Assembly (NCBI GenBank): GCA_040753015.1
Contig: JBFMHM010000001.1
Location: forward strand, 82,731 to 146,730
Reading direction: 5' to 3'
DNA length: 64,000 nt
DNA from: Candidatus Omnitrophota bacterium
GTDB lineage: Bacteria > Omnitrophota > Gorgyraeia > Gygaellales > JBFMHM01
Numbering within the stretch: the stretch's first letter is position 1; the number at the start of each line of letters is the position of its first letter. Shown piece after piece: positions 9,362 to 55,519 of this stretch. The notes beneath the pieces are model-generated. The model was not told the DNA's origin, did no database searches, and worked only from the letters and a program-made list of their open reading frames with translations. The position numbers were made by a program, and so were the translations under genes.

Positions 9362-9375
9362 AGCCATGCCTAACT

Positions 9376-9539
9376 CTGCTAAGAAAAATATCGAGTGTTT
9401 TATAGCGAGAAATTTTTTTAGCGTTTAGAGTTTGGCATAGTTATTTTGAATTTGCAGTTGTACTTGTAGGGACAGGCCTGTGTGCCTGTCCGAAATAATG
9501 AGATTGAAGAATAATTAAGTTGTGTGTGCCCCCGGAATT
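9376..9539 (+). repeat. 165-nt repeated leader element, copy 1, with conserved hairpin GTAGGGACAGGCCTGTGTGCCTGTCC (9466-9491) and 3' CCGGAATT site
   Basis: About 80% identical to 10175-10340. The 5' and 3' thirds are near-identical and the centre has indels. It lies directly upstream of the CDS at 9573. Confidence 0.7.
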
Positions 9540-9548
9540 TCTTATAAT
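9529..9548 (+). promoter_or_regulatory. CCCCCGGAATT operator-like site abutting a -10 TATAAT
   Basis: CCGGAATT at 9532-9539 and TATAAT at 9543-9548. AGGAGG and the ATG follow at 9573. Confidence 0.45.
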
Positions 9549-9572
9549 CTAGTATTATCTGTAAGGAGGAAG

Positions 9573-9998
9573 ATGAGAAAACTAATTAAGCATAAGAATG
9601 TTTCAGAATCAACAGATTTAGCAAGTTTAGTTAATAAAATATATGAACAGTTGGTTAGTCTGGAGAAAAAAGTTGATACATTAATCAATCGGTCTTCAGT
9701 TAGCACCCATAATAGCGGTGATCGTTTCCAAAGGGCTAATTCGCATTTTAGGCGCTCTGATCGCTTTCAAGGGGCAAGATATGAGGAAAGACCCAGAGAA
9801 ATAAATTTTACGCAGGCGGTTTGCGCAGAATGTGGTAAAGAATGCGAAGTTCCTTTTAGGCCCACAGGAGATCGTCCAGTATATTGTAGCGATTGTTTTT
9901 CGGTGCGTAATGATTCTGGATCATCTAGAGGAAAATTCAATAATAATAAGAGAAAGGGTTCATTTTTCCGAAGAAGAAAAGAGCACTCTCGATCTTAA
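9573..9998 (+). CDS. zinc-ribbon protein, Arg/Lys-rich (CxxC-x17-CxxC)
   Basis: The start is revised to MRKLIKHKN, with AGGAGG 6 nt upstream; the track ORF begins at 9522. The sequence contains CAECGKECEVPFRPTGDRPVYCSDCF, RFQ/RR repeats and a basic tail. Confidence 0.5.
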   Translation: MRKLIKHKNVSESTDLASLVNKIYEQLVSLEKKVDTLINRSSVSTHNSGDRFQRANSHFRRSDRFQGARYEERPREINFTQAVCAECGKECEVPFRPTGDRPVYCSDCFSVRNDSGSSRGKFNNNKRKGSFFRRRKEHSRS

Positions 9999-10174: not shown

Positions 10175-10340
10175 CTGCTAAGAAAAATATCGAGTGTTTT
10201 ATAGCGAGAAATTTTTCTAGCGATTAGAGTTCGACGAAGTTGCATTTGTAGGGACAGGCCTGTGTGCCTGTCCGAAATGATTGATATTCGGATGATGGAA
10301 TAATTAAGTGTCGTGTCCCCGGAATTAAATTTCCGGAATT
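10175..10340 (+). repeat. 165-nt repeated leader element, copy 2 (hairpin at 10248-10273; inverted CCGGAA-6-TTCCGG at 10319-10336)
   Basis: See copy 1. Tandem TTACCAAACAAA(R)TATAAT modules follow at 10352-10371 and 10409-10427, then AGGAGG and the ATG at 10460. Confidence 0.7.
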
Positions 10341-10459: not shown

Positions 10460-10774
10460 ATGAGCGTTATTAAGGGTGTATTAAAAGAAGAGCTACAAAA
10501 TTCTCTCGATATGCTGAAGGGATATAAAAGAGAGATAGTCAAAATAAAAGGCTGTCTTGTTAGGAAAAAAGTTGGTAAACATTATTATTACTACTTGGCT
10601 AAGAGGCAAGGAAAAAAGATAAAGTTTACATACAAAGGTCCGATTTCAGAAGAGATAAGAAAAGCCTATACTCAGCAAAGAAAAATGCTTAATAAATATA
10701 AGAAATTATTACTACAGGTTAAAAATCAAATTAAATTTATAAGGAGAGCTCTGCGTGGAAAAGAAACAGCGTGA
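10460..10774 (+). CDS. hypothetical small basic protein, partner of the downstream nucleotidyltransferase-fold protein
   Basis: 104 aa, Lys-rich. It overlaps the next ORF by 20 nt, so the two are translationally coupled. Confidence 0.5.
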   Translation: MSVIKGVLKEELQNSLDMLKGYKREIVKIKGCLVRKKVGKHYYYYLAKRQGKKIKFTYKGPISEEIRKAYTQQRKMLNKYKKLLLQVKNQIKFIRRALRGKETA

Positions 10775-11463: not shown

Positions 11464-11547
11464 TGCAAATAAAAATTGAAAGATTAAGTTATAATGTGTT
11501 GATAGAATTAATGTTACGCAGAAACGACACTGGATTTCTATGCTAGA
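11464..11547 (+). pseudogene. truncated duplicate of the cupin gene 5' end
   Basis: atgcaaataaaaattga is a 17/17 match to 9092-9108, and attaag follows after 3 mismatches. It translates MQIKIERLSYN... and stops after 27 codons. Confidence 0.4.
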
Positions 11548-12405: not shown

Positions 12406-13449
12406 ATGAAAACTAAATCTTTAAATAGAAACTTACACAAAGCAAGCCAAGCCAAAAAAGACGAGTTTTATACTCAACTTGCCGATATTGAAAATGAATT
12501 GAAATATTATAAAGATCAATTCCGCGGTAAAGTAGTTTTTTGCAACTGTGATGATCCTAGAGAAAGTAATTTCGTCAAATATTTCAGCATGAATTTTGAG
12601 CATTTAGGGCTAAAAAAATTGATAGCCACACATTATAAAGAAGCAAATTTATTTTCCCAAGAACCGCCTTATAAATTAGAATACACAGGCGATAAAAATG
12701 GTAATCGCACACCTGATCCAAGTGAGTTTATGACTGAGATGATAGGAACGGGCGATTTTCGTAGCGTGGAGTGTATTGAACTACTCAAAGAAGCGGATAT
12801 TGTTATGACTAATCCGCCATTTTCGCTGTTTCGTGAATATGTTGCACAGCTCGTGAAGTACAAAAAAAAGTTTTTGATTATAGGCAATACAAATTCACTA
12901 ACCTATAAAGAGATTTTTAAGCTAATTAAAGACAACAAGCTCCGTACTGGTTACACGAATTTTAATGTAGGAATGTTTTTTATTGTGCCAGACGATTGGG
13001 AGCATTTTCATCATATCGATGAAGATGGCAAGAAAATTGTGCGTGTCTCAACTTCGTGTTGGTTTACGAATCTTGTAGTTGAGAAGCATAAGCAAGATAT
13101 CACTCTTTATAAGAAATATTCACGTAAAGAATATCCAAAGTACTACAATTATGATGCAATTAACGTAGACAAATATACCGACATACCTTGCGACTATGAC
13201 GGTGCGATTGGTGTACCCATTACTTTCCTTGATAAATATAATCCGGAACAATTTGAGGTTATTGGTTTGGGTATATCTAATTCAGGGATAGAAATTGGAG
13301 TTAAACCATATAAAGAGGAACATAAAAAATACAGAAGAGAAGTTCAAAAAAGAGGTGCAGTTGATGGTGATTTATATATGATTAAAAATGGAATTGTTGA
13401 TGTTCCTTACGCTCGAGTTATTATAAAAAACAAGAAGGTGAAAAAATAA
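12406..13449 (+). CDS. N6-adenine DNA methyltransferase (EcoRI-methylase-like family, NPPF motif)
   Basis: The start is revised to MKTKSLN, 4 nt after the upstream stop; the track ORF begins at 12208 in an overlapping frame. The sequence contains DEFYTQ..., CNCDDPRESNFVKYF and DIVMTNPPF (motif IV). Confidence 0.7.
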   Translation: MKTKSLNRNLHKASQAKKDEFYTQLADIENELKYYKDQFRGKVVFCNCDDPRESNFVKYFSMNFEHLGLKKLIATHYKEANLFSQEPPYKLEYTGDKNGNRTPDPSEFMTEMIGTGDFRSVECIELLKEADIVMTNPPFSLFREYVAQLVKYKKKFLIIGNTNSLTYKEIFKLIKDNKLRTGYTNFNVGMFFIVPDDWEHFHHIDEDGKKIVRVSTSCWFTNLVVEKHKQDITLYKKYSRKEYPKYYNYDAINVDKYTDIPCDYDGAIGVPITFLDKYNPEQFEVIGLGISNSGIEIGVKPYKEEHKKYRREVQKRGAVDGDLYMIKNGIVDVPYARVIIKNKKVKK

Positions 13450-36634: not shown

Positions 36635-36635
36635 C

Positions 36636-36743
36636 GCCCCCGTAGCTTCAGCCAAAGGCTGATAGGATAGACTAAGTTATGCCCCCGTAGCTTCAGCCAA
36701 AGGCTGATCCGCCTCTGGCGGACAATAGGATAGACTAAGTTAT
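36636..36743 (+). repeat. two tandem partial copies of the tRNA-Arg 5' half with palindromic inserts (45-nt and 63-nt units)
   Basis: Unit 1 (36636-36680) reads GCCCCCGTAGCT, then the hairpin TCAGCCAAAGGCTGA, then TAGGATAGACTAAGTTAT. Unit 2 (36681-36743) is the same plus an extra hairpin, TCCGCCTCTGGCGGA. The tRNA acceptor, D-stem and D-loop parts are identical to the downstream tRNA. Confidence 0.7.
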
Positions 36744-36816
36744 GCCCCCGTAGCTCAATAGGATAGAGCAGCGGTTTCCTAAACCGCGCGCGGGCGTTCG
36801 AATCGTCCCGGGGGCA
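36744..36816 (+). tRNA. tRNA-Arg (anticodon CCT)
   Basis: Folded by hand. Acceptor GCCCCCG/CGGGGGC, D-arm GCTC-AATAGGATA-GAGC, anticodon arm GCGGT-TTCCTAA-ACCGC, a 4-nt variable loop, T-arm GGGCG-TTCGAAT-CGTCC and discriminator A. No CCA is encoded. Confidence 0.8.
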
Positions 36817-36878
36817 CATAAATACAGAATTAAGAGTTAAGAAATAAGAATTAAGATAAAATCAAATACAAATAATTT

Positions 36879-37889: not shown

Positions 37890-40445
37890 ATGAAAAAAAT
37901 ATTTTTTAGTTTGGTTGTTTCTATAACTTTAATTTGTTTGGGCACTATGTCCGCTGATGCACAAATCAAGAAACAACCTTATAATACAAAAGGTAATCCC
38001 GTGGCTATGCCAAGGCTTTCTATGGAAATAAGTTTACAAAATCAAAATCAACAAGCAATCAATGAAATTCGCGCGGGGCAGCCATTTAATATTCGTGCGA
38101 TCGTAACAAATAGCGGTAACGCTGAAGGTAGAATAACGCGACTTGAACTTTCAGATAATGGGCAGCGTATTAATCCACCGCTCAATACAATTGAAGTTCA
38201 AAATAATGGCCGTATGCCTTATAAAGCAACTAGTTGTGAAGTAATTATTCGTAATATAGTTATTCAGCAACAAGGCCAGCATACAATAACTTTACAACTA
38301 CGAGATGGCAATAATAACATTATCCCGGGTAATAATTCAGTTCCTTTACAAGTAATCGCCCCACAAGTTCAGCAACCAGCCGGAAGAGCTAGTATTGATA
38401 TTATTGATCCCATAGAAATAAATCCTAATCCCCTACGACCTGAGGATATATTTATTATTAATATTAATGCAAGAAACTTTGGTGCCGCGCACGGAATAAT
38501 AGAAAGAGTAGAAGTTACAGATAATTTTAATGTTATTCCTAACCTAATTCTTAATGTTAATGCACAACACGGACGCATCGTAATTCCTAACGATAATCAG
38601 AGTTACCCAATTTCGGTTCAATGCCAGCCGTTACAAACAGGAAGACATACAATACGTGTTAGATTTTTTTACAGCAGTGCTGCAGAACATCAAGAACATA
38701 TTTTTGATAGTCCGTACTCTGATCCAGTTATTCTAGAAATATCTGAACCGCAAGCACAGCCAAGCTTTGATAATCCCCAGCCTAGAATAATTGCGATAGC
38801 ACCAAGTCGCCCCAGTATCAATGAACCTTTTGGCGTAACTACAAGAATTACAAATTCCGGCAATGGTCCAGCTACAATAACTATGTCACGAATCTTTGAA
38901 GGCGATAATACTATTGGCACTAATAATGAAAGATTTGAAATAAACCCCAATATTACTATTAATAAAAATATAGCTTGCCAAGGTATAAGGCATCCCGGCG
39001 AACATACTATAGTTACTAAATTTTTTGATATTAATAATACGCCTATTTCAAGCGAACCGTTTACTTTTAATGTTATAGCAGCTAATTTTAACGAATCTTC
39101 TATATCGCGAGCTAGCCATTCAATCATTGCGAATCAATTATTTACAGTAACAGCAAACATTACGAATTCTGGAAACGGCCTAGGTACAATAAATACATCG
39201 ACAATTTTGTTACCAAACGGCAACCCTATAAGCACAGGAAGAAATGTATCACAACGTATTAATATCAAACCAGGCGAAACTGTTACTAAAGATATACAAT
39301 GTTTTATTATGCAGCAAGGTGAATATGATATAATTTTGGAACTAACTGACTCTAATAATAATGTTTATCGAAGCACGCCATTTCATATTGTCGTTGAACC
39401 TGCGCCACAAAGATTACCTAATCTTTCTATTGCCCGCGTATTTGCTACGATAGAAAACCGAGAAATCGATATAGTGCCGTCCAATACACCTTTTACTATT
39501 TCTATCGTAGTAAGCAATAGAGAAGGACAAGCAGATGGAATACTCTCTAATATCGAAATCAGAGATAATAATGCAATAATACCCTTGCCTGCGCCAAATC
39601 GTAATGTAACTGTTACTCGCGGCCAAGAACTAACTATACCAATCCGTATTCCAAACGGCATACAACAACCTGGTGAGCATAGGATAATGGTAACCCTTAT
39701 CGATAACAATAATAATTCTATTCCCGGCAATAATTTAGTTGCTCTACAAGTCCAAGAAGCACCTCGGCCACAGCCCCAGCTTGCTATATCTAACATTGCC
39801 ATAACAAATTTACAAAATCAGCCAATTAACTCCATTATCGCAGGCCAGCCTTTTAATATTGCCGTAACCGTAAATAATTCAGGCAACGCAGAGGGTGTTA
39901 TACAACGGGCGGAAGCGATAGATAACAATAATCTCATGAATCCGCAACCTCAAGTTAATCTTTCGAATAATGGACGCATTCCCGCTGGTGAACGAAATTA
40001 TAGAATAGAGTTTCTTAATGCAATAATTCAAAATCCCGGACCTCATCAAATCAACGTAAGGCTTACTGATTCAAGTGGAAATAGATACGATGTTAACCCG
40101 ATTATCCTACAAGTCCAAGAAGAACCCCGGCCAGAGGTTATAATTAATTCTGTAACTGCTACAGCTAATATCAACCTAAGAGATAGGCCCCAACCAGTTA
40201 CAGTAAATATTGAAGCAAGAAGCAATAATGCTCCTAGTACAATTAATGTAGAAATATTAGACCCGGATAACAACAGGCTAGAATTAGTTAGAAACATATT
40301 GCTTAATGTAAATGTAGATACCAGAGTACCACCAATAACAACATCACAAAACGCCCCTAGATCAACAAGACAAGTAAGGATTATAATCACCAGAGAAGAT
40401 AACACTGTTATTTTTGATCAACAGATAGATATTGCAAATCAATAG
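37890..40445 (+). CDS. secreted multi-domain CARDB-like repeat protein
   Basis: Signal peptide MKKIFFSLVVSITLICLGTMSADAQ. At least seven modules each contain a (T/V)N(S/F)GN(A/G)xG(R/T/V)I strand (NSGNAEGRI, NSGNGPATI, NSGNGLGTI, ...). The modules are separated by LQVQEAPRP-type linkers. Confidence 0.65.
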   Translation: MKKIFFSLVVSITLICLGTMSADAQIKKQPYNTKGNPVAMPRLSMEISLQNQNQQAINEIRAGQPFNIRAIVTNSGNAEGRITRLELSDNGQRINPPLNTIEVQNNGRMPYKATSCEVIIRNIVIQQQGQHTITLQLRDGNNNIIPGNNSVPLQVIAPQVQQPAGRASIDIIDPIEINPNPLRPEDIFIININARNFGAAHGIIERVEVTDNFNVIPNLILNVNAQHGRIVIPNDNQSYPISVQCQPLQTGRHTIRVRFFYSSAAEHQEHIFDSPYSDPVILEISEPQAQPSFDNPQPRIIAIAPSRPSINEPFGVTTRITNSGNGPATITMSRIFEGDNTIGTNNERFEINPNITINKNIACQGIRHPGEHTIVTKFFDINNTPISSEPFTFNVIAANFNESSISRASHSIIANQLFTVTANITNSGNGLGTINTSTILLPNGNPISTGRNVSQRINIKPGETVTKDIQCFIMQQGEYDIILELTDSNNNVYRSTPFHIVVEPAPQRLPNLSIARVFATIENREIDIVPSNTPFTISIVVSNREGQADGILSNIEIRDNNAIIPLPAPNRNVTVTRGQELTIPIRIPNGIQQPGEHRIMVTLIDNNNNSIPGNNLVALQVQEAPRPQPQLAISNIAITNLQNQPINSIIAGQPFNIAVTVNNSGNAEGVIQRAEAIDNNNLMNPQPQVNLSNNGRIPAGERNYRIEFLNAIIQNPGPHQINVRLTDSSGNRYDVNPIILQVQEEPRPEVIINSVTATANINLRDRPQPVTVNIEARSNNAPSTINVEILDPDNNRLELVRNILLNVNVDTRVPPITTSQNAPRSTRQVRIIITREDNTVIFDQQIDIANQ
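40134..40445 (+). repeat. 312-bp segment identical to 41553-41864 (shared 3' end of the two CARDB-like genes)
   Basis: Compared base by base, with a constant offset of 1419. Only the stop codons differ (TAG versus TAA). Confidence 0.8.
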
Positions 40446-40478
40446 ATAGTACGTAAGATTATAATGAATGGAGGCTGC

Positions 40479-41864
40479 ATGAAAAAAATATTTTTTGTTT
40501 TTGTTGTACACGTAGTATTAACTTGTTTAATTAATACTACAGCATACTCACAAGGAATTTTAAACCAAGATAACCAAAATCTTATTATTAATTCAGTTAT
40601 TATTGATCCTCAAATACCAGAGGCTAACCAACTTTTTAATATAAATGTTGAATTAAAAAATATTGGTAAGCAAAATCTTACTTTTGATGTCATAGAAGCA
40701 CAGACCCAACCCGAAGGAGTTATTTGGCGTCTAAGCTTTCCGAATGCAAGAACCATATCTCCAAAAACTAGTTTTTATTCCGGGCTAATTGAATGTCGTC
40801 CATTAGTCAATTCCGGGAAGCGAACATTAACAATAGTTGTAAAAAGTAGGAATAGAATAATTACACAAAAAAATATTGAAATAAAAGTTAGAAATGCAGC
40901 TGGGCCACTACTTTCAATTACTAATGTAATCGCTAGTCCTATTAATCAAAATCAGGGTTTTACCGTCACGGCTACAGTAAGAAATAGCGGGAATGCCGAA
41001 GGACGTATTATATCTACAACACTGCGAGCACAAGGAAATAATTTTATACTACAAAATAATATTGATAGGCTTGTAAGATCGCGATCAGAAGAACAAATTG
41101 AAATACGTTCACCAAATGGTTTTCCTACTCCAGGATTCAAAAATATGCTTTTAATTATTGAAACTGCCGATAACGCAAGAATACCTCCATTTCCTTTTGT
41201 AATAGAAGTTATTGAAACCAGAGCGCAAATTGGAATTATTAATCCTATTGAGATAAATCCTAATCCCGCTAACACAGGACAAGCATTTGATATTCTTACA
41301 AGAGTGCAAAATATCGGAAATGAAGGAGGAAGCATACGACACTTAATCGTAACGGATAACAATTTTCATCTTTTTGATGAAAGACCCAATGAAGTTATTC
41401 CCGCGGGTGAAAATCGAGTAATTACAACACGTATCCAAAACGGCATTCAAAATCTCGGCCCGCACCAGGTAAGCGTGCGCCTAACTGACTCAAATAATTA
41501 TCTCCATACCAGTAACCCAGTTATTATCCAAGTCCAAGAAGCACCTCGGCCCGAGGTTATAATTAATTCTGTAACTGCTACAGCTAATATCAACCTAAGA
41601 GATAGGCCCCAACCAGTTACAGTAAATATTGAAGCAAGAAGCAATAATGCTCCTAGTACAATTAATGTAGAAATATTAGACCCGGATAACAACAGGCTAG
41701 AATTAGTTAGAAACATATTGCTTAATGTAAATGTAGATACCAGAGTACCACCAATAACAACATCACAAAACGCCCCTAGATCAACAAGACAAGTAAGGAT
41801 TATAATCACCAGAGAAGATAACACTGTTATTTTTGATCAACAGATAGATATTGCAAATCAATAA
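40479..41864 (+). CDS. secreted CARDB-like repeat protein, paralogue of 37890-40445
   Basis: The start is revised to MKKIFFVFVV, with GGAGG 5 nt upstream. The signal peptide, NSGNAEGRI and NIGNEGGSI modules, and a C-terminal 104 aa identical to the upstream gene are present. Confidence 0.65.
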   Translation: MKKIFFVFVVHVVLTCLINTTAYSQGILNQDNQNLIINSVIIDPQIPEANQLFNINVELKNIGKQNLTFDVIEAQTQPEGVIWRLSFPNARTISPKTSFYSGLIECRPLVNSGKRTLTIVVKSRNRIITQKNIEIKVRNAAGPLLSITNVIASPINQNQGFTVTATVRNSGNAEGRIISTTLRAQGNNFILQNNIDRLVRSRSEEQIEIRSPNGFPTPGFKNMLLIIETADNARIPPFPFVIEVIETRAQIGIINPIEINPNPANTGQAFDILTRVQNIGNEGGSIRHLIVTDNNFHLFDERPNEVIPAGENRVITTRIQNGIQNLGPHQVSVRLTDSNNYLHTSNPVIIQVQEAPRPEVIINSVTATANINLRDRPQPVTVNIEARSNNAPSTINVEILDPDNNRLELVRNILLNVNVDTRVPPITTSQNAPRSTRQVRIIITREDNTVIFDQQIDIANQ

Positions 41865-42131
41865 CATTGAAGCTGACTTTAAAAAATTTTATATATTTTA
41901 TAAAAAAAACTTGACAATATCAATTTAATATGATAAAAATTAAATATAATATATAATTTTAAACACTAGAGATAACTTAAATTATGGCAGAAAGGAGGGA
42001 TGAAAAAATCTTTTTCTTAAAGATTATGCGCCTAGAGTTATCAAAATCTAGTGATATATAAAAGAAAATACCTTAGGGTTTAACCCTAGTTCTAAAATAT
42101 AACAAACGTTTTTTTAATGTGGAGGATTCAA

Positions 42132-43784
42132 ATGAAAAAAAGTTTATTAATCGCATGTTTAGCGATACTTGCATTTATCGCTATAACTATGCCCTCATAC
42201 GCCGCTGTGCAAAATATTAAGCTAAGCGGTGATTTGTTGATGAGAGGCATCTCTCGCTGGCAATTTGATTTTGTCGGTGACAAAACTGATGACGGAGCAA
42301 CCGTAATGGCTGGCGCAGGGGCTTGGAATGAAAATGGTCAAAATTATTTTATGACAACTGCCAGAGTAAGACTTGATGCTGATTTAACTGATAATGTTTC
42401 TGCAACTGTTAGAGTTCTAAATGAAAGAAAATGGGGTAACAAAGGAACTGATTCAAATCATGCTAATGGAAACCCTGGCTATAAAGCAGGAAGCGGTATC
42501 GATACTAATGATGATAATGTTAGGATTGATCTTGCTTATGCCACGTTAAAAGAATTCCTTTATGCACCATTAACATTAACTATCGGCCGGCAAAGAATGC
42601 AATTCGGCAATGGCATGATTGTTGGTGATTGGGATACAAATCTTGCCGCAACAACTGGTTATGCTACAGCACCTAACCCATCAACAGTAGCTCAAGCTGG
42701 CGGCCCACAAGGCGCTGTTATGAACAGATGGGGCAATTTTGGTTATTATAATCCTGCTCCTGATTTAAGCGAAGATAAATCGTTTGATGCAATCAGAGCA
42801 ACTATTAATTTAGATCCTTTAACAATGGATCTTTTATATGCAAAGTTAGATGAACAAGATCCTGCATTAGCCGATGATCTCGATCTCTGGGGTTTAAATA
42901 CCGGCTATAAGTTTGATTTACCTATACCATTTTTTTCTGAAATTTATTATTTTGGAAAATACCGTGGTAAAGATTATGTTAATGATGATACCGGTGTACT
43001 CTCAGCAGCAGCCGGCGCTACCCGTGAAATCAATAAAAATGATCAAGTACATACGCTCGGTGCAAGAGTGAGCCTCGATCCAGCTGAAAATCTTAATGTT
43101 CAATTTGAACTTGCTGGCCAGGTTGGTAGATACAATCCTCGGTTAGATCCAAATGATAGTGGTGCTTCTACTGTAAATGGTGTAGCAAGAGCTGCATGGG
43201 CAACTGAATTATCTGTTAATTATGATATACCAAAGTGGAAATTCAACCCAAAATTTATGGGTAGTTATGCATTTTTCTCTGGTGATCCGAAAGCAGCTAA
43301 CAGAGATCCTTCTATCGCCCCTGTCGCAGGAAATGCAGCATCATCAACTTCAGGCGCAGAAACATATAATGGATGGGATCCAATGTTTGAAAATCAAACA
43401 TTTGGCCATATTGCCAATGCTTTATTCAAACAAACCAATATGCACATATGGATGCTAAAAAGTTCCTTTACGCCATTACAGGATATCAATGTTGACCTTG
43501 GCTATAGCTATTACAGATTAAATAGGGGTTTTAATCAAGGTGATAGAGTTATCTTAAATGGTTTATTTGGCGGCCGTGCATATTTTATGAATGCACACGA
43601 TCATCTTGGACAAGAACTCGATGCAAACATCACTTACGACTACACTGAAGATGTTCAATTCGGGCTATTAGGAGGATTATTCTTCCCCGGAAATGCATTT
43701 ATGGAAAGTGGTAACGGTGGGCAATTCTTAACAAACCACAAAACAGCATCTGAAGTTATCGGTTCAATGAAAGTAACCTTCTAA
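42132..43784 (+). CDS. putative outer-membrane beta-barrel protein (porin/alginate-export-like)
   Basis: The start is revised to MKKSLLIACLAILAFIAITMPSYA, with GGAGG 6 nt upstream. The body has alternating amphipathic strands rich in Gly, Asn, Tyr and Asp. The C-terminal ...SMKVTF ends in Phe, as in an OMP beta-signal. Confidence 0.55.
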   Translation: MKKSLLIACLAILAFIAITMPSYAAVQNIKLSGDLLMRGISRWQFDFVGDKTDDGATVMAGAGAWNENGQNYFMTTARVRLDADLTDNVSATVRVLNERKWGNKGTDSNHANGNPGYKAGSGIDTNDDNVRIDLAYATLKEFLYAPLTLTIGRQRMQFGNGMIVGDWDTNLAATTGYATAPNPSTVAQAGGPQGAVMNRWGNFGYYNPAPDLSEDKSFDAIRATINLDPLTMDLLYAKLDEQDPALADDLDLWGLNTGYKFDLPIPFFSEIYYFGKYRGKDYVNDDTGVLSAAAGATREINKNDQVHTLGARVSLDPAENLNVQFELAGQVGRYNPRLDPNDSGASTVNGVARAAWATELSVNYDIPKWKFNPKFMGSYAFFSGDPKAANRDPSIAPVAGNAASSTSGAETYNGWDPMFENQTFGHIANALFKQTNMHIWMLKSSFTPLQDINVDLGYSYYRLNRGFNQGDRVILNGLFGGRAYFMNAHDHLGQELDANITYDYTEDVQFGLLGGLFFPGNAFMESGNGGQFLTNHKTASEVIGSMKVTF

Positions 43785-43815
43785 TTAATCAGAAGGAAGC
43801 AATTTATCCCCCGCA

Positions 43816-43847
43816 GAGTTTCTGCGGGGGATTTTTTATTGACAAAA
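43816..43847 (+). terminator. rho-independent terminator
   Basis: CCCCCGCAGAG-TTT-CTGCGGGGG is followed by ATTTTTTATT. Confidence 0.75.
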
Positions 43848-45730: not shown

Positions 45731-46033
45731 TTAAGTAATAATAGCAATTTGAATTAGTGATAAATCAATACCACCTGTAGGCTCTACTGAAGCCATTTTG
45801 GTACCAGATTGACCTGGATTTGGTAAGGCTTTTTGGGCTTGATTGGCTATAATTTCTAGTGCTTCTTGACCGCTAGGATTACCCGCAACCAACTGCGCAG
45901 TATCCGGCTTAACCCCGGCTTTAAGAAGTTTGGTTATAGCTAGATTCGTAAACATATTAATAAATTGTTTTATATCCTTTCCTAGCACAAGTATCTGCCT
46001 GGTCAGGAGCGCCGGGGGTGACGTGCCAGTCAC
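45731..46033 (-). CDS. hypothetical ORF overlapping the 3' end of the giant gene (possibly a frameshifted continuation)
   Basis: 100-aa ORF that overlaps 45957-51140 by 77 nt in another frame. No motif is recognised. Confidence 0.2.
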   Translation of the reverse strand: MTGTSPPALLTRQILVLGKDIKQFINMFTNLAITKLLKAGVKPDTAQLVAGNPSGQEALEIIANQAQKALPNPGQSGTKMASVEPTGGIDLSLIQIAIIT

Positions 46034-49000
46034 GACCCTCTTTACCTCTGTTAAAGAATTGTTGAGTTAGGCGGATGATTTGATAGTGATCTAGGTCTGT
46101 ATTTTCAAGTAATTCGTGGAGGATATATTCGTCAATTAAGTCATTTGGTAAACCATTCACTCCCTCCCTTTCACTTAAATATTGTATTAGATTAATTGCA
46201 AGAGCACTTTCAGCGCCTAAGAAGTAACGGTTAGGGCTTTCTACTTCGGCGTTAAACCAGTTAAATGGACAAGTTTCAGCTTCAGGCAGACCGAAGGCCT
46301 CGCCAGTTTTTAGTGGCGGGCCGCGTAAGCGATTGAGTAAACCTTGCGCGTCTTGTTGTGACATGCCTGCGTTGATCAATAAAGCTTCTATTTCAGCCCC
46401 TCTGTTATCCAACAACGCCTGTATTCGCCTATGCGCTAAAACAACAACTTCGCGGTTATCTTGTGCTACTTGGCTTGAGTTTGCCTTGATTGCTTCCCTC
46501 TTCCGCGCAAGTTCCTCTTCGCTGTAGCCACGCGATATTTCGCCGGTAGGAGTTTTAGTCCTCGCGTTATTAATATCGCGAATTATTCTCTCTATATCAT
46601 TTCTGACTTCCCTAGAACCTCGATTAAAAGCTGTTTCTAATGCAGGTAATGCTACTTTGCCGATTTTAATAAGGGATTCGATCGCAGAGTCGCGAACAGT
46701 AGGATCTTTCAAACACTCAATTAAAGACTCAACTGCTGGCCGACCGGTTTTAATAAGTGCTTCTCTGGCGTTATAGCGGACAGACCCATCCTCATCCTTC
46801 AAACATTTAATCAAAGGCTCAACTGCACGAGGATCGCCGATTTCGCCAAGGGCTTTGATAGCGGATTGACTGAGCAAATTGTTATCATATCTCAAGCATG
46901 CAATCAGACGCTCGACTGCTGGCCGACCAATTTTAATAAAGGCCTTAACGGCAGCTTGACGAACATTTTTATCCTCATCTCTCAGACACACAATTAGAGG
47001 ATCGACTGCCGGCTGGCCAATTTTAGCAAGGGCCTGGGCAGCTGCGTGGCGGATATCTTCGTTTTCATCTCTTAAGCACGTAATTAACGGTTCGACTATC
47101 AATGGATGACGACTCTCGCCAAGATTACGAATAATAGATTTGCGATCTGTTTCATCATCGGGATTAAGAAAACTGACCTGCCTTGCAACATCTTCTGGCA
47201 TCCCCAAATTACTTAAAAGTGTAATTAACCTACCCGTATCTATCATTAGATTTAGGAGATGAGGCGCATTAACTCTAGTAAAATCCAAATTAGTATGTGA
47301 TAATATATTGATTAAATTTCTACGCCAAGTAGCCCATTGTTCAATTTCTGGATTAAATGAGCGTTTTAATAATTGTAATAAATGTTTGTCCATAAGTTTT
47401 CGAGCTTCATCAGTACTTATCGCAGCTTCGGCATACGCAATTAAATCATTCACAACGTATGCATTACCTCTTTGCGCTAGAATGACAAGGATATCTTCTA
47501 TGTCATCCTTTGCCCGGGAAAGCCGCCATAATCTTTTACACTGTTCCTCTGTAAAATTTTTAGGATGATGTTCTGCTATTTGTCTAAGGCTAGTAGATAT
47601 TTCAGCGCTATATTTTGTAGTTTCTTGTTTATGTAGTCGGATAATTTGTAGTACCTTACGCATAGTATTTTTCGACTCTATTAACTCTAGGTATTCCAAC
47701 ATTACATCAATTGCCTTTAACCTCCCCAACTCAGCAATTGCATCTTTGCGCGCTTGATCTAAGTCAGTGCGTAAAGCAATAAGCACACGAAAGTCTGCTT
47801 TTAGTTTATGCCAATTATCATCAGTAGTTTCGATGATTTGAGCACATCTTTTAACTGCTTGCTCTCTTTGGCCTTTAGTCAAGTCGGCTGCAAGTAACAC
47901 GCCAGTTAGCTGGAATTCAAGCTCTGTGTTATATTCTTGAGGCCGTGTTTTAATAAGCGCCTCATGGAGTTCTCTTGCTTGATCTAGCGCTTCTACTGCC
48001 GGGCCGAGAAGAATACGTTCTGCTAATCTGCGTGAGTCTTGATCATATAGCTGTTGATTATGAACCATAACATCAAGCGTGCCTACTGCTTTAGGCTGGT
48101 TTATTCTAGCTAAGAGCAATGATAAAAATTCAACGCATCTTATTTTATCCGATAAGTCATAACCAGCTACAGCTAATCTAGGCTGGTTTTGGCCTAGTGT
48201 ATTAACAAAAATAGCTATTGCCTGAGGTTCTTGTACGGTTATAAGCTCTACCAAAAGATCAAAAGCAACAATGCCTTTATCTTTGGCAAAGCCTGCTAGT
48301 GCCTTAACAACATCTGCTGGTAGACGGCCAAGCATACATATATCCGAGACTCTTCTTAGTTCTCTTGCGTATATCTGTTGCGGTGAGTCACTATCTGTTG
48401 TTCTTGCTATAGCTGCAGCACTGGCTTGTTGTTTTAATTCTTGCAGCTTATTATAACTTCTACTAAGTTCAGTTTGTATTGCTTCTATGTCATCAATACT
48501 CTTTTGAAAGCTTATAGTTTGTGTTTGGCCTCTAGTTATAGTTCCTTGTTGCCTTATTGTATCTACTAAAACAATAAGCCTAGCTACAGTAGCAAGCCCA
48601 GCAATCTTATCTTCAGTTTTCATATGGGTTCTAATAGCAGCAATGTAAGGCTTGTATCTTCTTGTTTCCATCATATGGGCAAGAACATAACAAGATAATG
48701 GTAGATTAGCAAGGACTTCTTCAGTAAGCATTCCTTTGTATTGAGCAAGGCAAAGCCTAGCCCTTGCAGAGTCTAAAAAACTTAGCCAAGTTATTAGGCT
48801 TACCACATCATCAGAAGTCCTGGCAAAGCTTTTCATAAATACTAAAGTTGCTGTTTCTGTATCTAAGTAAGTGAGTAATTCTAATACAGCTGGTTGTATA
48901 TCTAACTGTCTTGTGAGATTAATTAGCATCTTAACAGCTTGCTCTCTATCACGGTTAGTACTCATAAGCAGCGCTGTTTGGCTAAACGCTTCTTGTCTTT

Positions 49001-51140
49001 GGGAATTAGTAAGACAAGTTGCTTCTTGAAGCAATGTTCTTAGCCTTTGAGCAAGCGGTAGGTTTGTAACAGGCCAGGCTCTATTTCTTAGAGAGAACAT
49101 ATCCATAACTCGTCTGGCTATACCTAATTTTTGCGGTTTTTCTTCATTTTCTGATGCTTGAGCTTCTGGAACAGCTAAAGCAGTTGTTGGTGCTATTACT
49201 TCAACAACATAATCTTCAGATAAAATACCAGCTGCTTGTAATTGTAATTCTGACCGTCTTTCATCTGTTATGGCCTCTGTAACAACAGCTAATCCTGGCG
49301 TAGATAGTTCAGCATTAGTTACAAATATTGGCCTGTTGGCAATATACCTTAAGTTCCAACCAAGCTGGCCAATAAAATAACTAACCCTTTGAGCTGACGT
49401 ACCACTATCTGCTATTCTTGTTTCACTAACGCTTTCTATAGGTAAATGTTCACATAAATAAGTAAATAAATCTTGCTTGAGATTGTCTGTAGTAACGCTT
49501 TCAATAATAACACTAGTCAAATATTCAAAAACTAGCTTAAGATAATCCGCGGAAGGAACATTCAAACTATCAAGCACGCCTCTTGATAAAAGAGCGGTTT
49601 CTTGGCCGACATAATTCAAACCAGCTTCAAGAATTAATCTTTGTTCATAGCTACCACCTCTACTTGCACGAATCCTACGGTCAAAATCTAACAATGTATA
49701 TGCTAAATGCCTACGCTTCTGTTCTGAATAAGCTAGGCCCTTGGATAAGTCTAGGTCTTGAAGAATTGCATTAGATGTTTGAGGAACACCAGCTATTAAA
49801 ATTATGGGATAATGAACCTCATCAGAAACAGCCATATACATCTCACCAGTTTTTAAGAACCTCTCTGCTGCGCCTTTGTAACTACCACTAGCTAAAACTC
49901 TACCTAGGTCTCTTTCTAACCTTTCTTGTCCTAGATCTACTCTTACATTAATACCAGCATCTTGAATATATGTACCCAGACGCATTGATCCATTTGCAGT
50001 TACACCAGGAAAGTTTTTAGGATCAAAACCTACACCCCCACTCACATAACTTCTCCTGATATTCGCCTTTAGCTCTTCATTGTAGTTAGTCTTAGTAAGG
50101 TGGTATTCCCCTTGCTTAACAGAATCTAAATAAGCAGCAAAGATTTGTTCTTTTGTTACAGGCTCTTTGGAGATTAGGCCGTTTAGGTTATTGGTGTTGA
50201 TTATTGAAGAAAAGGCGTTCTTCAGTTCGTCCGTTCGCTGGTTCGTCAGTTCTTCTAACTTTTCGCTTTGACTTTTCCCGCCTGAGGCGGGTCCGCCTTT
50301 GGCGGATACGTTTTCTTTGTACCACTTCGCAAGAATAATTGCATTGTATATTTGTCTTAAAGGCTCATATGATGGATCATGGTTTACTTTATAGGTTAGG
50401 TTAGGAAGTATTAGTTCTTTTAGTTGAGCTTCGCAGTAGGATTGTAACTCTTGGTTGTTATCAAACTCCCCCTTTATCCCCCTCTTTGGTAAAGAGGGGG
50501 TCTGGGGGAGTTGTAGATACTCACTTTCCAGTAACACTTTCAGTGTTGATTTGGTAATTACACAGCTTCCTTTACCGTCTTCGTATACTTCTGCTTTGTC
50601 TGGGACTATCCAGACACGGAAGGTTGTGGGGATAGATACAGTTCGACTGTTCTTCAGTTCGTCAGTTCGTCGGTTAGATAATTGTTTTGCCTTGGCAAAC
50701 ACACGTTCCCAATAGGTAGTTGCTCCAGTAGATAATCCGGGAAATAGGCTAAAGGCTGTGTCTTTCTTAAGCTTTAGGTCTAGGAGTAGTAGATGCTTGC
50801 CCATGTCTGTGTAGGATAGATTAGTTCCTGTGAGCCTGTTAGGTTGGTTTGGGTTAAGGTTAACCCAGAATTCAGAGTCTTGTATGGTTAGAGCGGTTAG
50901 GAAGTAGTTTATGTTGGTTTGTAGATCTTTACGTTGGTCTAGGGAAAGAATGGTGCCTTTGGGGATGTTTAGATTGAATTGGATACCTGTAGGGACAGAC
51001 CCGTGTGTCTGTCCAAATGTTATGCCTAACAATATAGGCGCCTGTAAGGGTGCGGTAACCGTACCCTGAATAAAACCCAAGCCTATTTGGCTAAAAGCTA
51101 GCGTAAAAATTAAAACCACAGAAACTATACGACGTATCAT
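45957..51140 (-). CDS. giant secreted protein (1727 aa) with PBS-lyase-type HEAT repeats
   Basis: Signal peptide MIRRIVSVVLIFTLAFSQ. The long all-alpha body has at least six HEAT-like repeats of the pattern PLI.CL.DED..VR..A..AL.KIG.PAV. Duplicated TDELKN motifs and Gly/Pro-rich in-frame palindrome segments are present. Confidence 0.7.
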   Translation of the reverse strand: MIRRIVSVVLIFTLAFSQIGLGFIQGTVTAPLQAPILLGITFGQTHGSVPTGIQFNLNIPKGTILSLDQRKDLQTNINYFLTALTIQDSEFWVNLNPNQPNRLTGTNLSYTDMGKHLLLLDLKLKKDTAFSLFPGLSTGATTYWERVFAKAKQLSNRRTDELKNSRTVSIPTTFRVWIVPDKAEVYEDGKGSCVITKSTLKVLLESEYLQLPQTPSLPKRGIKGEFDNNQELQSYCEAQLKELILPNLTYKVNHDPSYEPLRQIYNAIILAKWYKENVSAKGGPASGGKSQSEKLEELTNQRTDELKNAFSSIINTNNLNGLISKEPVTKEQIFAAYLDSVKQGEYHLTKTNYNEELKANIRRSYVSGGVGFDPKNFPGVTANGSMRLGTYIQDAGINVRVDLGQERLERDLGRVLASGSYKGAAERFLKTGEMYMAVSDEVHYPIILIAGVPQTSNAILQDLDLSKGLAYSEQKRRHLAYTLLDFDRRIRASRGGSYEQRLILEAGLNYVGQETALLSRGVLDSLNVPSADYLKLVFEYLTSVIIESVTTDNLKQDLFTYLCEHLPIESVSETRIADSGTSAQRVSYFIGQLGWNLRYIANRPIFVTNAELSTPGLAVVTEAITDERRSELQLQAAGILSEDYVVEVIAPTTALAVPEAQASENEEKPQKLGIARRVMDMFSLRNRAWPVTNLPLAQRLRTLLQEATCLTNSQRQEAFSQTALLMSTNRDREQAVKMLINLTRQLDIQPAVLELLTYLDTETATLVFMKSFARTSDDVVSLITWLSFLDSARARLCLAQYKGMLTEEVLANLPLSCYVLAHMMETRRYKPYIAAIRTHMKTEDKIAGLATVARLIVLVDTIRQQGTITRGQTQTISFQKSIDDIEAIQTELSRSYNKLQELKQQASAAAIARTTDSDSPQQIYARELRRVSDICMLGRLPADVVKALAGFAKDKGIVAFDLLVELITVQEPQAIAIFVNTLGQNQPRLAVAGYDLSDKIRCVEFLSLLLARINQPKAVGTLDVMVHNQQLYDQDSRRLAERILLGPAVEALDQARELHEALIKTRPQEYNTELEFQLTGVLLAADLTKGQREQAVKRCAQIIETTDDNWHKLKADFRVLIALRTDLDQARKDAIAELGRLKAIDVMLEYLELIESKNTMRKVLQIIRLHKQETTKYSAEISTSLRQIAEHHPKNFTEEQCKRLWRLSRAKDDIEDILVILAQRGNAYVVNDLIAYAEAAISTDEARKLMDKHLLQLLKRSFNPEIEQWATWRRNLINILSHTNLDFTRVNAPHLLNLMIDTGRLITLLSNLGMPEDVARQVSFLNPDDETDRKSIIRNLGESRHPLIVEPLITCLRDENEDIRHAAAQALAKIGQPAVDPLIVCLRDEDKNVRQAAVKAFIKIGRPAVERLIACLRYDNNLLSQSAIKALGEIGDPRAVEPLIKCLKDEDGSVRYNAREALIKTGRPAVESLIECLKDPTVRDSAIESLIKIGKVALPALETAFNRGSREVRNDIERIIRDINNARTKTPTGEISRGYSEEELARKREAIKANSSQVAQDNREVVVLAHRRIQALLDNRGAEIEALLINAGMSQQDAQGLLNRLRGPPLKTGEAFGLPEAETCPFNWFNAEVESPNRYFLGAESALAINLIQYLSEREGVNGLPNDLIDEYILHELLENTDLDHYQIIRLTQQFFNRGKEGRDWHVTPGAPDQADTCARKGYKTIY

Positions 51141-51143
51141 TTA

Positions 51144-51191
51144 ATTCTCTCCGTATGTTCCCGTGGCTTATAATAAAGTATACACTATAAA
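51144..51191. repeat. 48-bp exact direct repeat (promoter/5'UTR of the giant gene), copy A
   Basis: ATTCTCTCCGTATGTTCCCGTGGCTTATAATAAAGTATACACTATAAA is identical at 55413-55460. Confidence 0.8.
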
Positions 51192-51222
51192 TACATATAT
51201 TTCAAGGCAATACGAATTTCGT

Positions 51223-54002: not shown

Positions 54003-54509
54003 TTATAAAGATATTTTTTTAATATCTAGAGACTTGCAGAGCAACAATAATGTATTAAGCGTAATATTCTTTTTGCCCTCTTCAATTTTTGAAATATCCG
54101 GCTGATCAATACCGGTAACCAATGCTAAGTCCTTTTGACTTAAACCTTTCTCTATGCGCGCAATTTTAATTGTTTTTCCAATATTTAAAAATGATATTGG
54201 TACTGCCCCTTTAAATGTATGTTTTTTTTGAATACCTTTTTTTTCCAAAAGTTGATCGTAAACAGTTTGCCACCACTGCCGAAAATCTGATTTCTTTTCA
54301 ACTTTAATCCAATATAATTTTACCCTAGTCCAATTTTTAATAAATTCGTCTTTGGAAATAACAGAAAAAATTATTTTTGGCTCATCACATCGAGAAAATA
54401 AATTGACCAAGCGAATAATAAATTTAGGATGATTTGGATCTTTAAGAATTACTTTGGTTTCCTTTAAGGCCTTATCATTTAAGTCCCAAAAATATTTCGA
54501 TATATCCAT
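54003..54509 (-). CDS. XRE-family HTH protein with N-terminal domain of unknown function
   Basis: The C-terminal HTH reads IARIEKGLSQKDLALVTGIDQPDISKIEEGKKNITLNTLLLLCKSL. Its ATG overlaps the stop of the upstream gene (ATGA). Confidence 0.6.
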   Translation of the reverse strand: MDISKYFWDLNDKALKETKVILKDPNHPKFIIRLVNLFSRCDEPKIIFSVISKDEFIKNWTRVKLYWIKVEKKSDFRQWWQTVYDQLLEKKGIQKKHTFKGAVPISFLNIGKTIKIARIEKGLSQKDLALVTGIDQPDISKIEEGKKNITLNTLLLLCKSLDIKKISL

Positions 54510-55219
54510 TATTCAATTTCCTCCGCCATAAATTTTTTGACTTCGTTTTCTAGATAAATAATCATTTCTCGAGAATCAAAGTTTTTTATATAAATATCCA
54601 TATCAAGTAAATCAAATTTCAAATCCTGTCTAGAAAATGTTTGATACCAGTAAATCATGCCTCTTTGAATCTGACGGGGCAGTGTTTTTAAAAATAAATG
54701 CAGCGGCTCAATTTTCTTTGAAAGCATATAAATATCAAAAACATCTCGCGCTTTTCTCCTGCCCTCCATTATCTCAGCACCCACATCATTTTCTTTTATG
54801 CTTAAACCCGTAATAGTTGTGATTTTTTGCAAATAGATAATTTTCACATCGTAAACAGGCACTCCATCAAAATATTTTATTTTAGGTTTATCAAAAATAA
54901 CATCTTCAACAAAATCAAGTTTTAGGGATCTTTTTGTGCTTTTTATCGGGACAGAATAAAATCTCACTTTAGCCATATTTGGAGCTATAAACTCTGATTC
55001 AAGCTTTATATTAAGCCTTGTTTCTTTTTTAAATTCTTTTACAATCTCATTTATCTCTTTTACATCATATATCGGTGAAAAAAAATCCAAATCAACAGAA
55101 AACCTGTGATACAAATAATAAAGTTCGAGTGCGGTTCCACCCGTAAGTGCGAATGTTTTTGTTTTTTTCGCAAAAATATTTAAAATCTTATGCTGTAATT
55201 GCCTATTTTCCTTATCCAT
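54509..55219 (-). CDS. AbiEii-like nucleotidyltransferase (type IV toxin family, DUF1814)
   Basis: KTFALTGGTALELYYLYHRFSVDLDFF matches the AbiEii GGTAL...R.S.DLDF motif. Length is 236 aa. Confidence 0.65.
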   Translation of the reverse strand: MDKENRQLQHKILNIFAKKTKTFALTGGTALELYYLYHRFSVDLDFFSPIYDVKEINEIVKEFKKETRLNIKLESEFIAPNMAKVRFYSVPIKSTKRSLKLDFVEDVIFDKPKIKYFDGVPVYDVKIIYLQKITTITGLSIKENDVGAEIMEGRRKARDVFDIYMLSKKIEPLHLFLKTLPRQIQRGMIYWYQTFSRQDLKFDLLDMDIYIKNFDSREMIIYLENEVKKFMAEEIE

Positions 55220-55295
55220 ATCATCATAATTTTTATAGTTTATAAACTATATCTAATATAGAGTATAAACTATATTTTATGTTTTGTCAAGTTCT

Positions 55296-55460
55296 AATTT
55301 ACACAAGACTCCCCTTTCTTCGTATATTTTTGCTTCGTCTGGTACGATCCAGACACGGAAGATTGTGGGGATAGATACGGTTCGACTGTTCGTCAGTTCT
55401 TCAGTTCTTTTGATTCTCTCCGTATGTTCCCGTGGCTTATAATAAAGTATACACTATAAA
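55296..55460 (-). pseudogene. degenerate 5' remnant of a giant-gene paralogue: promoter copy B plus an internally deleted coding fragment
   Basis: 55413-55460 is identical to 51144-51191. 55300-55412 is about 85% identical to 50560-50680, which encodes ...EELTNSRTVSIPTIFRVWIVPDEAKIYEE, compared with NSRTVSIPTTFRVWIVPDKAEVYED in the intact gene. The first 450 nt or so of coding sequence are missing. Confidence 0.5.
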
Positions 55461-55519
55461 CTCAAAATTTTGCACTTTTTCTCTTTTATTTTTAATAATA
55501 TATTATATAATTTACTATT

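Follow-up and report, generated by a model that had tools for sequence, protein, structure and literature searches.

Short dispersed repeats translated in frame within the N-terminal domain of a HEAT-repeat protein from Candidatus Omnitrophota

The locus and the encoded protein

The DNA under study is a 64-kb stretch (the window) from a metagenome-assembled genome (MAG) of Candidatus Omnitrophota. It carries the gene of a long protein with HEAT repeats, deposited at NCBI as 'HEAT repeat domain-containing protein' and placed on a 417-kb contig. This work deals with the GC-rich palindromes and the short tandem arrays that are translated within this gene. An earlier note on the same DNA had proposed that some of the palindromes are in-frame insertions and had considered that the gene might be interrupted. 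The open reading frame (ORF) is uninterrupted over its 1727 amino acids (aa). The gene had also been described as AT-rich, which it is not to any special degree: the GC content of the 46-51 kb region is 38-45%, above that of its surroundings (~30-37%) in an AT-rich window of ~30-38% GC. The positions of the features are given in Table 1.

The protein would be composed, from the N- to the C-terminus, of a Sec-type leader, a domain of ~330 aa (the N-domain), a lineage-specific helical region, PBS-type HEAT repeats and a small C-terminal module. The signal-peptide-like leader, already recognised in the earlier note, is visible in the hydropathy profile. Compared on this basis with the composition of Sec signal peptides (a basic n-region, an h-region of 10-15 hydrophobic residues and a cleavage motif of small residues), it consists of MIRR, followed by IVSVVLIFTLAF and then by S-Q. 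Its hydrophobic stretch of 12 residues (Kyte-Doolittle value of 2.9) is the sole strongly hydrophobic segment of the 1727-aa protein. The hydropathy suggests that the protein may be exported, and the leader may also be an uncleaved signal anchor.

The long part that follows the signal peptide had been called an all-alpha body. In an AlphaFold2 (AF2) model of aa 430-1340 the DSSP assignment gives helices only, in line with this description, but the model is of low confidence, with a mean predicted local distance difference test (pLDDT) score of 39, and the all-alpha character is to be taken as tentative. The PBS-type HEAT repeats are confirmed at aa ~1340-1480 by Pfam scores above the thresholds, of 114 bits for HEAT_2 (PF13646, cut-off of 27.7) and 70.9 bits for HEAT_PBS (PF03130, cut-off of 20.9); HEAT scores 62.5 bits. 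HEAT-type repeats are the only Pfam matches in the protein. In the PDB, the region shows strong similarity to repeats of the alphaRep/MTH187 type, with E-values down to 1e-78. The NCBIfam equivalogs of the phycobilin lyase CpcE/F and of NblB score 50-63 bits, against cut-offs of 220-330, and match the repeat region alone. On these sequence matches, the HEAT region is best described as a generic repeat scaffold and not as a lyase. Pfam and PDB sequence searches with the C-terminal and middle regions return only noise, and the local matches of these regions are two paralogues of the same MAG, P0005 and P0002, respectively. In P0005 the C-terminal module is placed directly after the N-domain.

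Table 1. Position of the gene, its domains and the repeats in the 64-kb window
Feature	Position	Strand	Remarks
Intact ORF, 1727 aa, ATG start	45957..51140	(-)	no interruption; NCBI MEW5757977.1
5' untranslated region (UTR) and promoter region, GGAGAG ribosome-binding site	51141..51202	(-)	89% conserved in the remnant of a paralogue (55406-55471)
Signal-peptide-like leader, aa 1-23, MIRR then hydrophobic stretch	51072..51140	(-)	hydropathy; predicted helix at residues 2-22
Conserved N-terminal family domain, aa ~35-370	50031..51038	(-)	motifs FWVNL, RVWIVP, PLRQIY, R.Y.SGG
27-nucleotide (nt) hairpin repeat, 8-bp stem, encodes GQTHGSVPT, aa 43-51 (in the loop of aa 43-52)	50988..51014	(-)	copy of the intergenic hairpins 9465-9491 and 10247-10273
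Period-8 tandem array with 4.6 copies of a TGACGAAC-like unit, encodes RRTDELKNSRT, aa ~155-167	50639..50675	(-)	
Nested GC-rich hairpin, encodes LPQTPSLPKRGIKGEF, aa ~210-226	50464..50512	(-)	9-bp outer stem, 10-bp inner stem
Inserted segment (palindromes, spacer, octamer array), aa 279-312	50205..50306	(-)	in this protein, P0002 and P0003 only, among 258 aligned
Two adjoining perfect 15-nt palindromes, encoding SAKGGPASGG, aa 279-288	50277..50306	(-)	coding strand TCCGCCAAAGGCGGA + CCCGCCTCAGGCGGG
Second period-8 tandem array, 4.5 copies, encodes EELTNQRTDELKN, aa ~296-308	50217..50252	(-)	
Helical middle region, aa ~430-1330	47151..49853	(-)	sole detectable homologue is the paralogue P0002, 63% identity
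~5-6 PBS-lyase/alphaRep-type HEAT repeats, aa ~1333-1500	46641..47144	(-)	Pfam; DNA repeat period of 90-93 nt
C-terminal module, aa ~1530-1714, motifs NWFNA, NRYFLG, DLIDEYILHE	45999..46553	(-)	common to the paralogue P0005 only
Three 15-nt palindromes of the family of the gene's 15-mers, upstream of tRNA-Arg(CCT)	36648..36722	(+)	TCAGCCAAAGGCTGA x2, TCCGCCTCTGGCGGA x1
Intergenic copy of the 27-nt hairpin	9465..9491	(-)	
Second intergenic copy of the 27-nt hairpin	10247..10273	(-)	
Decayed paralogue remnant	55280..55471	(-)	5' UTR joined to an octamer array, then ~30 N-domain codons

Hairpins and octamer arrays within the gene

A hairpin was counted if it was perfect and GC-rich and had a 3-nt loop on a stem of 6 bp or more. 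The first 1200 nt of the gene contain three of them, where 0.04 are expected, a number never reached in 2000 simulations. The whole window contains 11, against 0.8 expected. The DNA folding z-scores are -4.9 and -5.1. The hairpins reported in the earlier note are thus real and beyond chance, although its coordinates were displaced by up to ~13 nt. On the coding strand no U-run follows the hairpins of the gene, and the tRNA is the only match in an Rfam search of the window.

The two adjoining palindromes of 15 nt are CCCGCCTGAGGCGGG at 50277-50291 and TCCGCCTTTGGCGGA at 50292-50306. Upstream of them in the gene lies the nested hairpin of 49 nt, the inner part of which is CCCCCTCTTTGGTAAAGAGGGGG (50478-50500, 10-bp stem) and which folds with a dG of -19.2 kcal/mol (z of -4.9). 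This 23-nt inner hairpin had been assigned to the same family as the 15-nt palindromes. It is instead the core of the different, nested 49-nt palindrome, which is also present in P0005. The third hairpin (50988-51014) was absent from the earlier note, as were the octamer arrays encoding TDELKN and the N-domain family with its variable loops.

The duplication of TDELKN had been noticed, and the motif is indeed found twice, as RTDELKN at aa 158-164 and aa 301-307. Both are translations of period-8 tandem DNA arrays. A pattern of four phased GAAC gives 4 matches in the window, against 0 expected, at three sites; the third array lies at 55380-55407, inside a decayed fragment of a paralogue. Simple-sequence contingency (phase-variable) loci have a near-perfect tandem repeat within the ORF, with a unit length not divisible by 3 and a copy number that varies between strains. 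The unit of the arrays, 8 nt, is of such a length, and the arrays are imperfect (71-79% matches). The patterns of the repeats are YCMGCCNNNGGCKGR for the 15-mers, GGACAGRCACACRGGYCTGTCCCTACA, CCCCCTCTTT...AAAGAGGGGG for the nested hairpin and GAACNNNN for the arrays. The peptides derived from repeats in the gene product include ENVSAKGGPASGGK, FGQTHGSVPTGIQ and LPQTPSLPK.

One further octamer array, in the Omnitrophota locus L052, was considered as the same element and rejected, the GAAC periodicity there being part of native domain sequence (KNPRTQELENTSKEL) and probably coincidental.

The N-terminal domain family

A profile (A1) of 32 N-terminal regions was searched against 1.84 billion representatives (clusters at 50% identity). 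At E<=1e-3 it matched 8380 clusters, of which 7006 reach E<=1e-30, and the protein described here scores 356 bits against it. Each protein has a single copy of the domain, which lies at residues ~1-370; the proteins themselves are 420-3340 aa long. All the matches with a phylum-level organism name are from Omnitrophota, and one is named merely 'bacterium'. A hydrophobic leader is present in 231 of the 245 family members with complete N-termini. The invariant motifs are FWVNL, RVWIVP, PLRQ[IV]Y and R.Y.SGG, with the columns F80, W92-L95, W177-P180, L261-Q263, Y365, G368 and G369. The N-domain matches no Pfam or NCBIfam model and no fold in the PDB. As judged from the sequence searches, it constitutes a very large unannotated domain family of the Omnitrophota. 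A keyword search of three Omnitrophota papers retrieved no description of this N-terminal domain and no mention of palindromes or hairpins.

The homologues match residues ~50-375 only, beginning near their own N-termini, and the bodies that follow vary: they contain HEAT, ankyrin, TPR, response-regulator, HATPase, radical-SAM, PPDK and even glycolytic-enzyme domains. The MAG itself has at least seven paralogues with differing C-terminal bodies. The N-domains of P0002 and P0003 are 81-87% identical to that of the protein, with long perfectly identical stretches, and the bodies differ. P0005 is divergent, with 34% identity over the best local alignment. Despite this divergence, it shares with the protein the peptide of the nested hairpin, LPQ[TA]PSLPKRGIKGEFD[NS]NQ. 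A scan of the contig collection with the N-domain found two distant Omnitrophota loci only, and the metagenome scan found no close relatives.

Insert positions in the family and in the predicted structure

The position of the repeats was related to the family through a hidden Markov model alignment of 258 sequences. In it, the protein has the inserts GQT after model position 58, SNRRTDEL after 167, KG after 226 and GPASGGKSQSEKLEELTNQRTD after 284. The last of these is common only to the near-identical paralogues P0002 and P0003, and the pairwise alignments with the family mostly break at residue 278 and restart near residue 313. The earlier proposal of an in-frame insertion is largely supported: in the protein alignments the segment of aa 279-312 reads as an insertion, confined to these three proteins among the 258. 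It had also been foreseen that orthologues might carry the same peptide with AT-rich codons, in which case no insertion would have taken place. At the protein level, the homologues lack the peptide altogether.

Insertions of at least 8 aa cluster, in the family as a whole, after the model positions 78, 167, 226 and 284. The AF2 model of the N-domain has a pLDDT of 77.8 and a pTM of 0.74. Its confidence dips to 55-64 at residues 41-50, 161-170, 211-230 and 281-310, all of them between secondary-structure elements. Taken together, the dips in the model and the insertion hot spots of the family suggest that every palindrome or array lies in a loop that tolerates variation in length.

Close paralogues carry differing repeat peptides in the same loops. 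P0004 has two copies of the peptide VGAIPCLAGRQARNRPITDGRKHGFAPT, and P0007 has one, placed at another loop. P0004 also contains PEPE[HQ]STVQG twice, and the peptides of octamer arrays, [RT][TD]EEL[TK]N, are found at three different loops across the paralogues. From the genetic code, the two halves of the first of these peptides, VGAIPCL and QARNRPI, would be reverse-complement codon partners, as is expected from the translation of a long hairpin.

Copies elsewhere in the window

The 15-mer pattern has 5 matches in the window, against 0.02 expected, restricted to the gene and to the tRNA-Arg locus. The palindromes encoding SAKGGPASGG are therefore of the same family as those of the tRNA-Arg locus, as the earlier note had claimed. 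The consensus is YCMGCC-NNN-GGCKGR, and the differences in the stems between copies are compensatory. Direct repeats flank the tandem pairs at the tRNA locus (27 nt) and in the Omnitrophota locus L076 (14 nt), and 0 of 300 random controls reached either score. These two tandem-pair sites are the only significant ones; the flanking direct repeats of the copy in the gene and of single 15-mer copies are not significant.

At the tRNA-Arg(CCT) gene (36744-36817), the first ~24 nt are duplicated twice just upstream (36635-36743). Each of the partial tRNA copies is split after GCCCCCGTAGCT by one or two of the 15-nt palindromes. These duplications could reflect repeated insertion or duplication, or be an integration scar.

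The 27-nt hairpin has 3 copies in the window, against 0 expected, two of the three being intergenic. The intergenic copies are identical to each other. The copy in the gene has 3 mismatches, two of which form a compensatory G>A / C>T stem pair. The intergenic hairpins are located in a wider repeat of ~100-150 nt (9346-9499 and 10145-10281, 85-93% identity) which ends in the GTAGGGACAGGCCTGTGTGCCTGTCC hairpin. Both copies of this repeat are upstream of small ORFs (9522..9998 and 10460..10774) and are without an Rfam match at the gathering threshold. The repeat may be a shared 5' leader or a regulatory element.

The decayed remnant of a paralogue that contains the third octamer array has a 5' UTR 89% identical to that of the gene and has lost the ATG. 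It is placed directly upstream of an AbiEii toxin / helix-turn-helix (HTH) antitoxin pair (54003-55219), as if this cassette had replaced the body of the gene.

Repeats in other Omnitrophota

In 1.02 Mb of other Omnitrophota loci, the 15-mer family has 17 matches, mostly intergenic and with few within long ORFs. The tandem pair of L076, TCAGCC..GGCTGA + TCCGCC..GGCGGA, is of the same type as that of the tRNA locus of the window. As the order of the two palindromes is the same in L076 as at the tRNA locus, they may well form one unit. In L076 the pair (TCAGCCGTAGGCTGA + TCCGCCTGCGGCGGA) is in a non-coding region, at 5915-5985, with the 14-nt direct repeat AA[G/T]GGTCGATAGTC on its flanks. The possibility that this pair adjoins a tRNA was ruled out, as ARAGORN finds no tRNA there.

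A second locus, L003, on an Omnitrophota contig from Hainich groundwater, contains 18 GC-rich hairpins in its family gene and 3 in the remaining 10 kb. This gene has at least six copies of a composite hairpin element of ~105 nt, which is open in the reading frame of the gene. The five copies that were aligned share one register and the sixth, a variant, is shifted; two copies lie in loops of the N-domain.

Also in L003, a GGGTTAAGGG-type repeat is found at 11087-11135, 11492-11540 and 13001-13049, once in an intergenic position and twice inside housekeeping genes, namely a Mur-ligase/FolC-like gene and trmE. The FolC-like gene has in addition a hairpin with a 13-bp stem at 12028-12056. Because of their presence in the FolC-like gene and in trmE, the intragenic repeats of L003 are not confined to the long-protein family.

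Comparison with known systems

Several groups of palindromic repeats offer points of comparison. The repetitive extragenic palindromes (REP) and the bacterial interspersed mosaic elements (BIME), associated with RAYT transposases, and the miniature inverted-repeat transposable elements (MITE), such as Correia, ERIC and BOX, are short, GC-rich, imperfect palindromes, with many copies and sometimes in tandem, for which mobilisation in trans is assumed. REP are extragenic by definition, whereas the gene copies described here are intragenic. In the mitochondria of yeast, the GC clusters (e.g. of var1) are GC-rich palindromic mini-elements of a very AT-rich genome, some of them in frame in a protein gene. 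They are organellar and unrelated in sequence, and the comparison is an analogy only. To our knowledge, no MITE or REP as small as a perfect palindrome of 15 nt has been described.

MITE have terminal inverted repeats and a target-site duplication. Neither is seen at the 15-mer copy in the gene; the tandem pairs of the tRNA locus and of L076 have the flanking direct repeats given above. MITE are reviewed in PMC10969869.

The Rickettsia palindromic elements (RPE) insert in frame in Rickettsia genes and are translated as extra peptides (PMC10969869). The likeness to the present case lies in palindromic repeats dispersed in the small, AT-rich genome of a host-associated bacterium, which are in frame, translated and placed at positions compatible with the fold (PMC10969869). 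Of these properties, the repeats described here have the in-frame, translated palindrome, the copies at non-coding sites (in the 64 kb sampled) and the loop positions (on the predicted model). On the other hand, RPE are ~100-150 bp long, whereas the units here are of 15, 27 and 49 nt, with the addition of an 8-nt tandem array. Their unusually small units set these repeats apart from the known RPE-type insertions. RPE are also defined families of Rickettsia, and the repeats of this other phylum are compared with them by behaviour and not by sequence. Finally, RPE occur in many unrelated housekeeping genes, whereas in this window only one gene of one family is affected.

The Archaeovorins are very long, HEAT-rich Omnitrophota proteins (West-Roberts et al. 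2023, bioRxiv 10.1101/2023.11.21.568195). As described there, the type has an ORF of more than 90 kb (30,000 aa), many transmembrane helices and glycosyl transferase, peptidase and NUDIX domains, and the N-terminal regions of giant proteins are generally without identifiable domains (10.1101/2023.11.21.568195). The likeness is in the phylum, in the N-terminal signal peptide and in HEAT as the most frequent domain, and the repertoire of the N-domain family overlaps in PPDK_N, HATPase_c, radical SAM and response regulator. The sizes of more than 30,000 aa and the many transmembrane helices given there differ from the 1727 aa and the single hydrophobic segment found here. With this length, one hydrophobic segment and HEAT domains only, the protein is not of the Archaeovorin type.

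Origin of the repeats

The evidence described above favours, as the probable explanation, an intact gene of an Omnitrophota-specific multigene family, the N-domain of which has gained, in the manner of RPE, in-frame copies of short dispersed repeats that landed in permissive loops. Accordingly to this explanation, the palindromes and the TDELKN motifs would not be ancestral. They would have been copied from short DNA repeats, of four kinds or more, that are dispersed in the genome and, in part, across the phylum. The four kinds, i.e. the 27-nt hairpin, the 15-nt mini-palindromes, the nested 49-nt hairpin and the period-8 tandem array, would each have become fixed in the coding sequence. They would persist because their net length preserves the reading frame, because the GC-rich palindromes have no stop codons, and because they are sited in four surface loops of the N-domain that are permissive of changes in length. 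By parsimony, the protein alignments and the dispersed DNA copies point to arrival by insertion. The spread might proceed by REP/MITE-like mobilisation in trans, or by template-switch or duplication events. As for the protein, for which the earlier note had considered the role of a secreted scaffold or adhesin, it may be exported or anchored by its N-terminus. The N-domain would then be a module common to the family, for targeting to the envelope or for anchoring, and the HEAT array a scaffold that binds other proteins.

Several observations weigh against this explanation. At the 15-mers of the gene, a flanking direct repeat is not significant (p~0.38), and neither a target-site duplication nor terminal inverted repeats are found. 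None of the ten neighbouring ORFs that were scanned encodes a transposase, RAYT/IS200-like ones included. The choice between insertion on the one side and deletion in other lineages or convergent origin on the other is made by parsimony. A family-wide enrichment of hairpins was considered and rejected, with 0.15/kb in family ORFs and 0.22/kb outside (82 loci), and the phenomenon is therefore a property of particular lineages or genomes and not of the family. The dispersal within the own genome is read from 64 kb, a thin sample given that the contigs listed for the MAG already add up to over 1 Mb. Many family members contain domains of typically cytoplasmic enzymes, a poor fit with secretion.

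The same repeats can be explained in other ways. They might be recombination or gene-conversion joints that shuffle cassettes and bodies, or period-8 on/off switches, which would diversify a surface protein. The N-domains of the protein, P0002 and P0003, 81-87% identical in front of differing bodies, agree with such shuffling, and so do the different placement of the C-terminal module in P0005, the remnant at 55280-55471, in which the 5' UTR is fused exactly to the octamer array, and the contigs of P0003 and P0010, which end within the domain. In addition, a change of one unit in an 8-nt array would shift the frame. However, the imperfection of the arrays (71-79% matches) disfavours slippage, a single deletion junction is thin evidence, and the contig ends may be assembly breaks at repeats, so that this explanation is considered unlikely. 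The hairpins might instead be cis-acting signals that are selected in place, for instance structures in the mRNA at which translation pauses, to the benefit of co-translational export or folding, sites of RNase action or of attenuation, or sites of DNA-protein binding, with the peptides as a by-product. Their thermodynamic stability, the compensatory changes that keep the palindromic symmetry, and the intergenic copies upstream of ORFs, where a regulatory role is possible, would fit. This is nevertheless rather improbable, given that the segments are missing from nearly all homologues, that unrelated repeats occupy the same loops of paralogues, that the repeat types are four and unrelated, and that the hairpins are without a U-run and negative in Rfam.

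Selection on the protein itself, as a Gly/Pro/charged linker or a low-complexity segment with coincidentally palindromic DNA, would account for the resemblance of SAKGGPASGG to a flexible linker and for the location in loops. It would not account for the copies in non-coding DNA, for the perfect palindromes with compensatory stem changes, for their large excess over shuffled sequence or for the 15-mer DNA family in other genomes, where it is mostly intergenic, and it is highly improbable. An assembly artefact would require that the near-identical N-termini of paralogues were collapsed or chimerised, or that contigs were mis-joined at repeats, in a MAG from short reads. The near-identity of three N-domains and the two paralogue proteins that are partial at contig ends within the domain are what such an error would produce. 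The ORF is, however, continuous on the 417-kb contig and the repeats preserve the frame; L003, an independent assembly from another site, has similar in-frame elements, and copies of the 15-mer family are present in many assemblies of independent origin. An artefact is hence very unlikely.

A bolder proposal goes beyond the gain of repeats in loops. Of all DNA insertion units that propagate themselves, the 15-nt palindromes might be the smallest described so far, spread across the Omnitrophota by a dedicated hairpin-recognising enzyme. Together with the octamer arrays, they might also serve as recombination joints that shuffle N-terminal cassettes and bodies in this large family of presumably exported proteins and thereby vary the surface of a host-dependent nanobacterium. 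The features that can be cited for the 15-mer as a unit are the compensatory stems, the occurrence as single copies or as a fixed tandem pair, and the occasional flanking duplications of 14-27 nt. The proposal is speculative and its truth is doubtful.

Significance

Palindromic repeats that colonise genes in frame are familiar above all from Rickettsia. The present case is from Omnitrophota, with units down to 15 nt, and suggests that small, AT-rich genomes with GC-rich hairpin repeats generally come to be colonised in this way. Repeat insertions act as natural 'loop-insertion' markers of protein topology. In uncultured bacteria they also make the predicted proteins longer and distort them, and peptides such as VGAIP...RNRPI or GQTHGSVPT are best recognised as translated repeats.

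The N-domain family, with at least 8000 clusters at 50% identity, fronts proteins with HEAT arrays, kinases and glycolytic enzymes. Understanding this domain could show how the long proteins of Omnitrophota are targeted or anchored, a question that recent publications on giant Omnitrophota genes leave open.

Other features of the window

The ten neighbouring ORFs encode, among their products, an Alginate_exp-like porin, an RF-1-domain protein, YraN, ComM, DprA and the HTH/AbiEii pair. An ORF of 100 aa with a GTG start (45731-46033) is on the same strand as the gene and overlaps its 3' end, though in a different reading frame. Part of this overlap is a GC-rich segment, 45994-46034, that encodes RDWHVTPGAPDQAD in the long protein. 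The 100-aa ORF is probably spurious.

A GC-rich stretch (at least 75% GC) at 10007-10060, GCTTGCTCGCCTCGCGGCGAAGCCGAGGGCCGGCAGGGAGGCAGG, comes right after the small ORF 9522..9998 and may be another hairpin-type repeat. A perfect hairpin with a 12-bp stem, ATCCCCCGCAGAGTTTCTGCGGGGGAT, is found at 43806-43832, 22 nt past the stop codon of the gene of the Alginate_exp-like outer-membrane protein (42117..43784), and is probably the terminator of this gene. The adjacent ORFs 37890..40445 and 40464..41864 have similar MKKIFF leaders and contain a 300-nt repeat of 97% identity (40094-40393 and 41513-41812), which suggests a recent duplication or gene conversion between these neighbouring genes of exported proteins.

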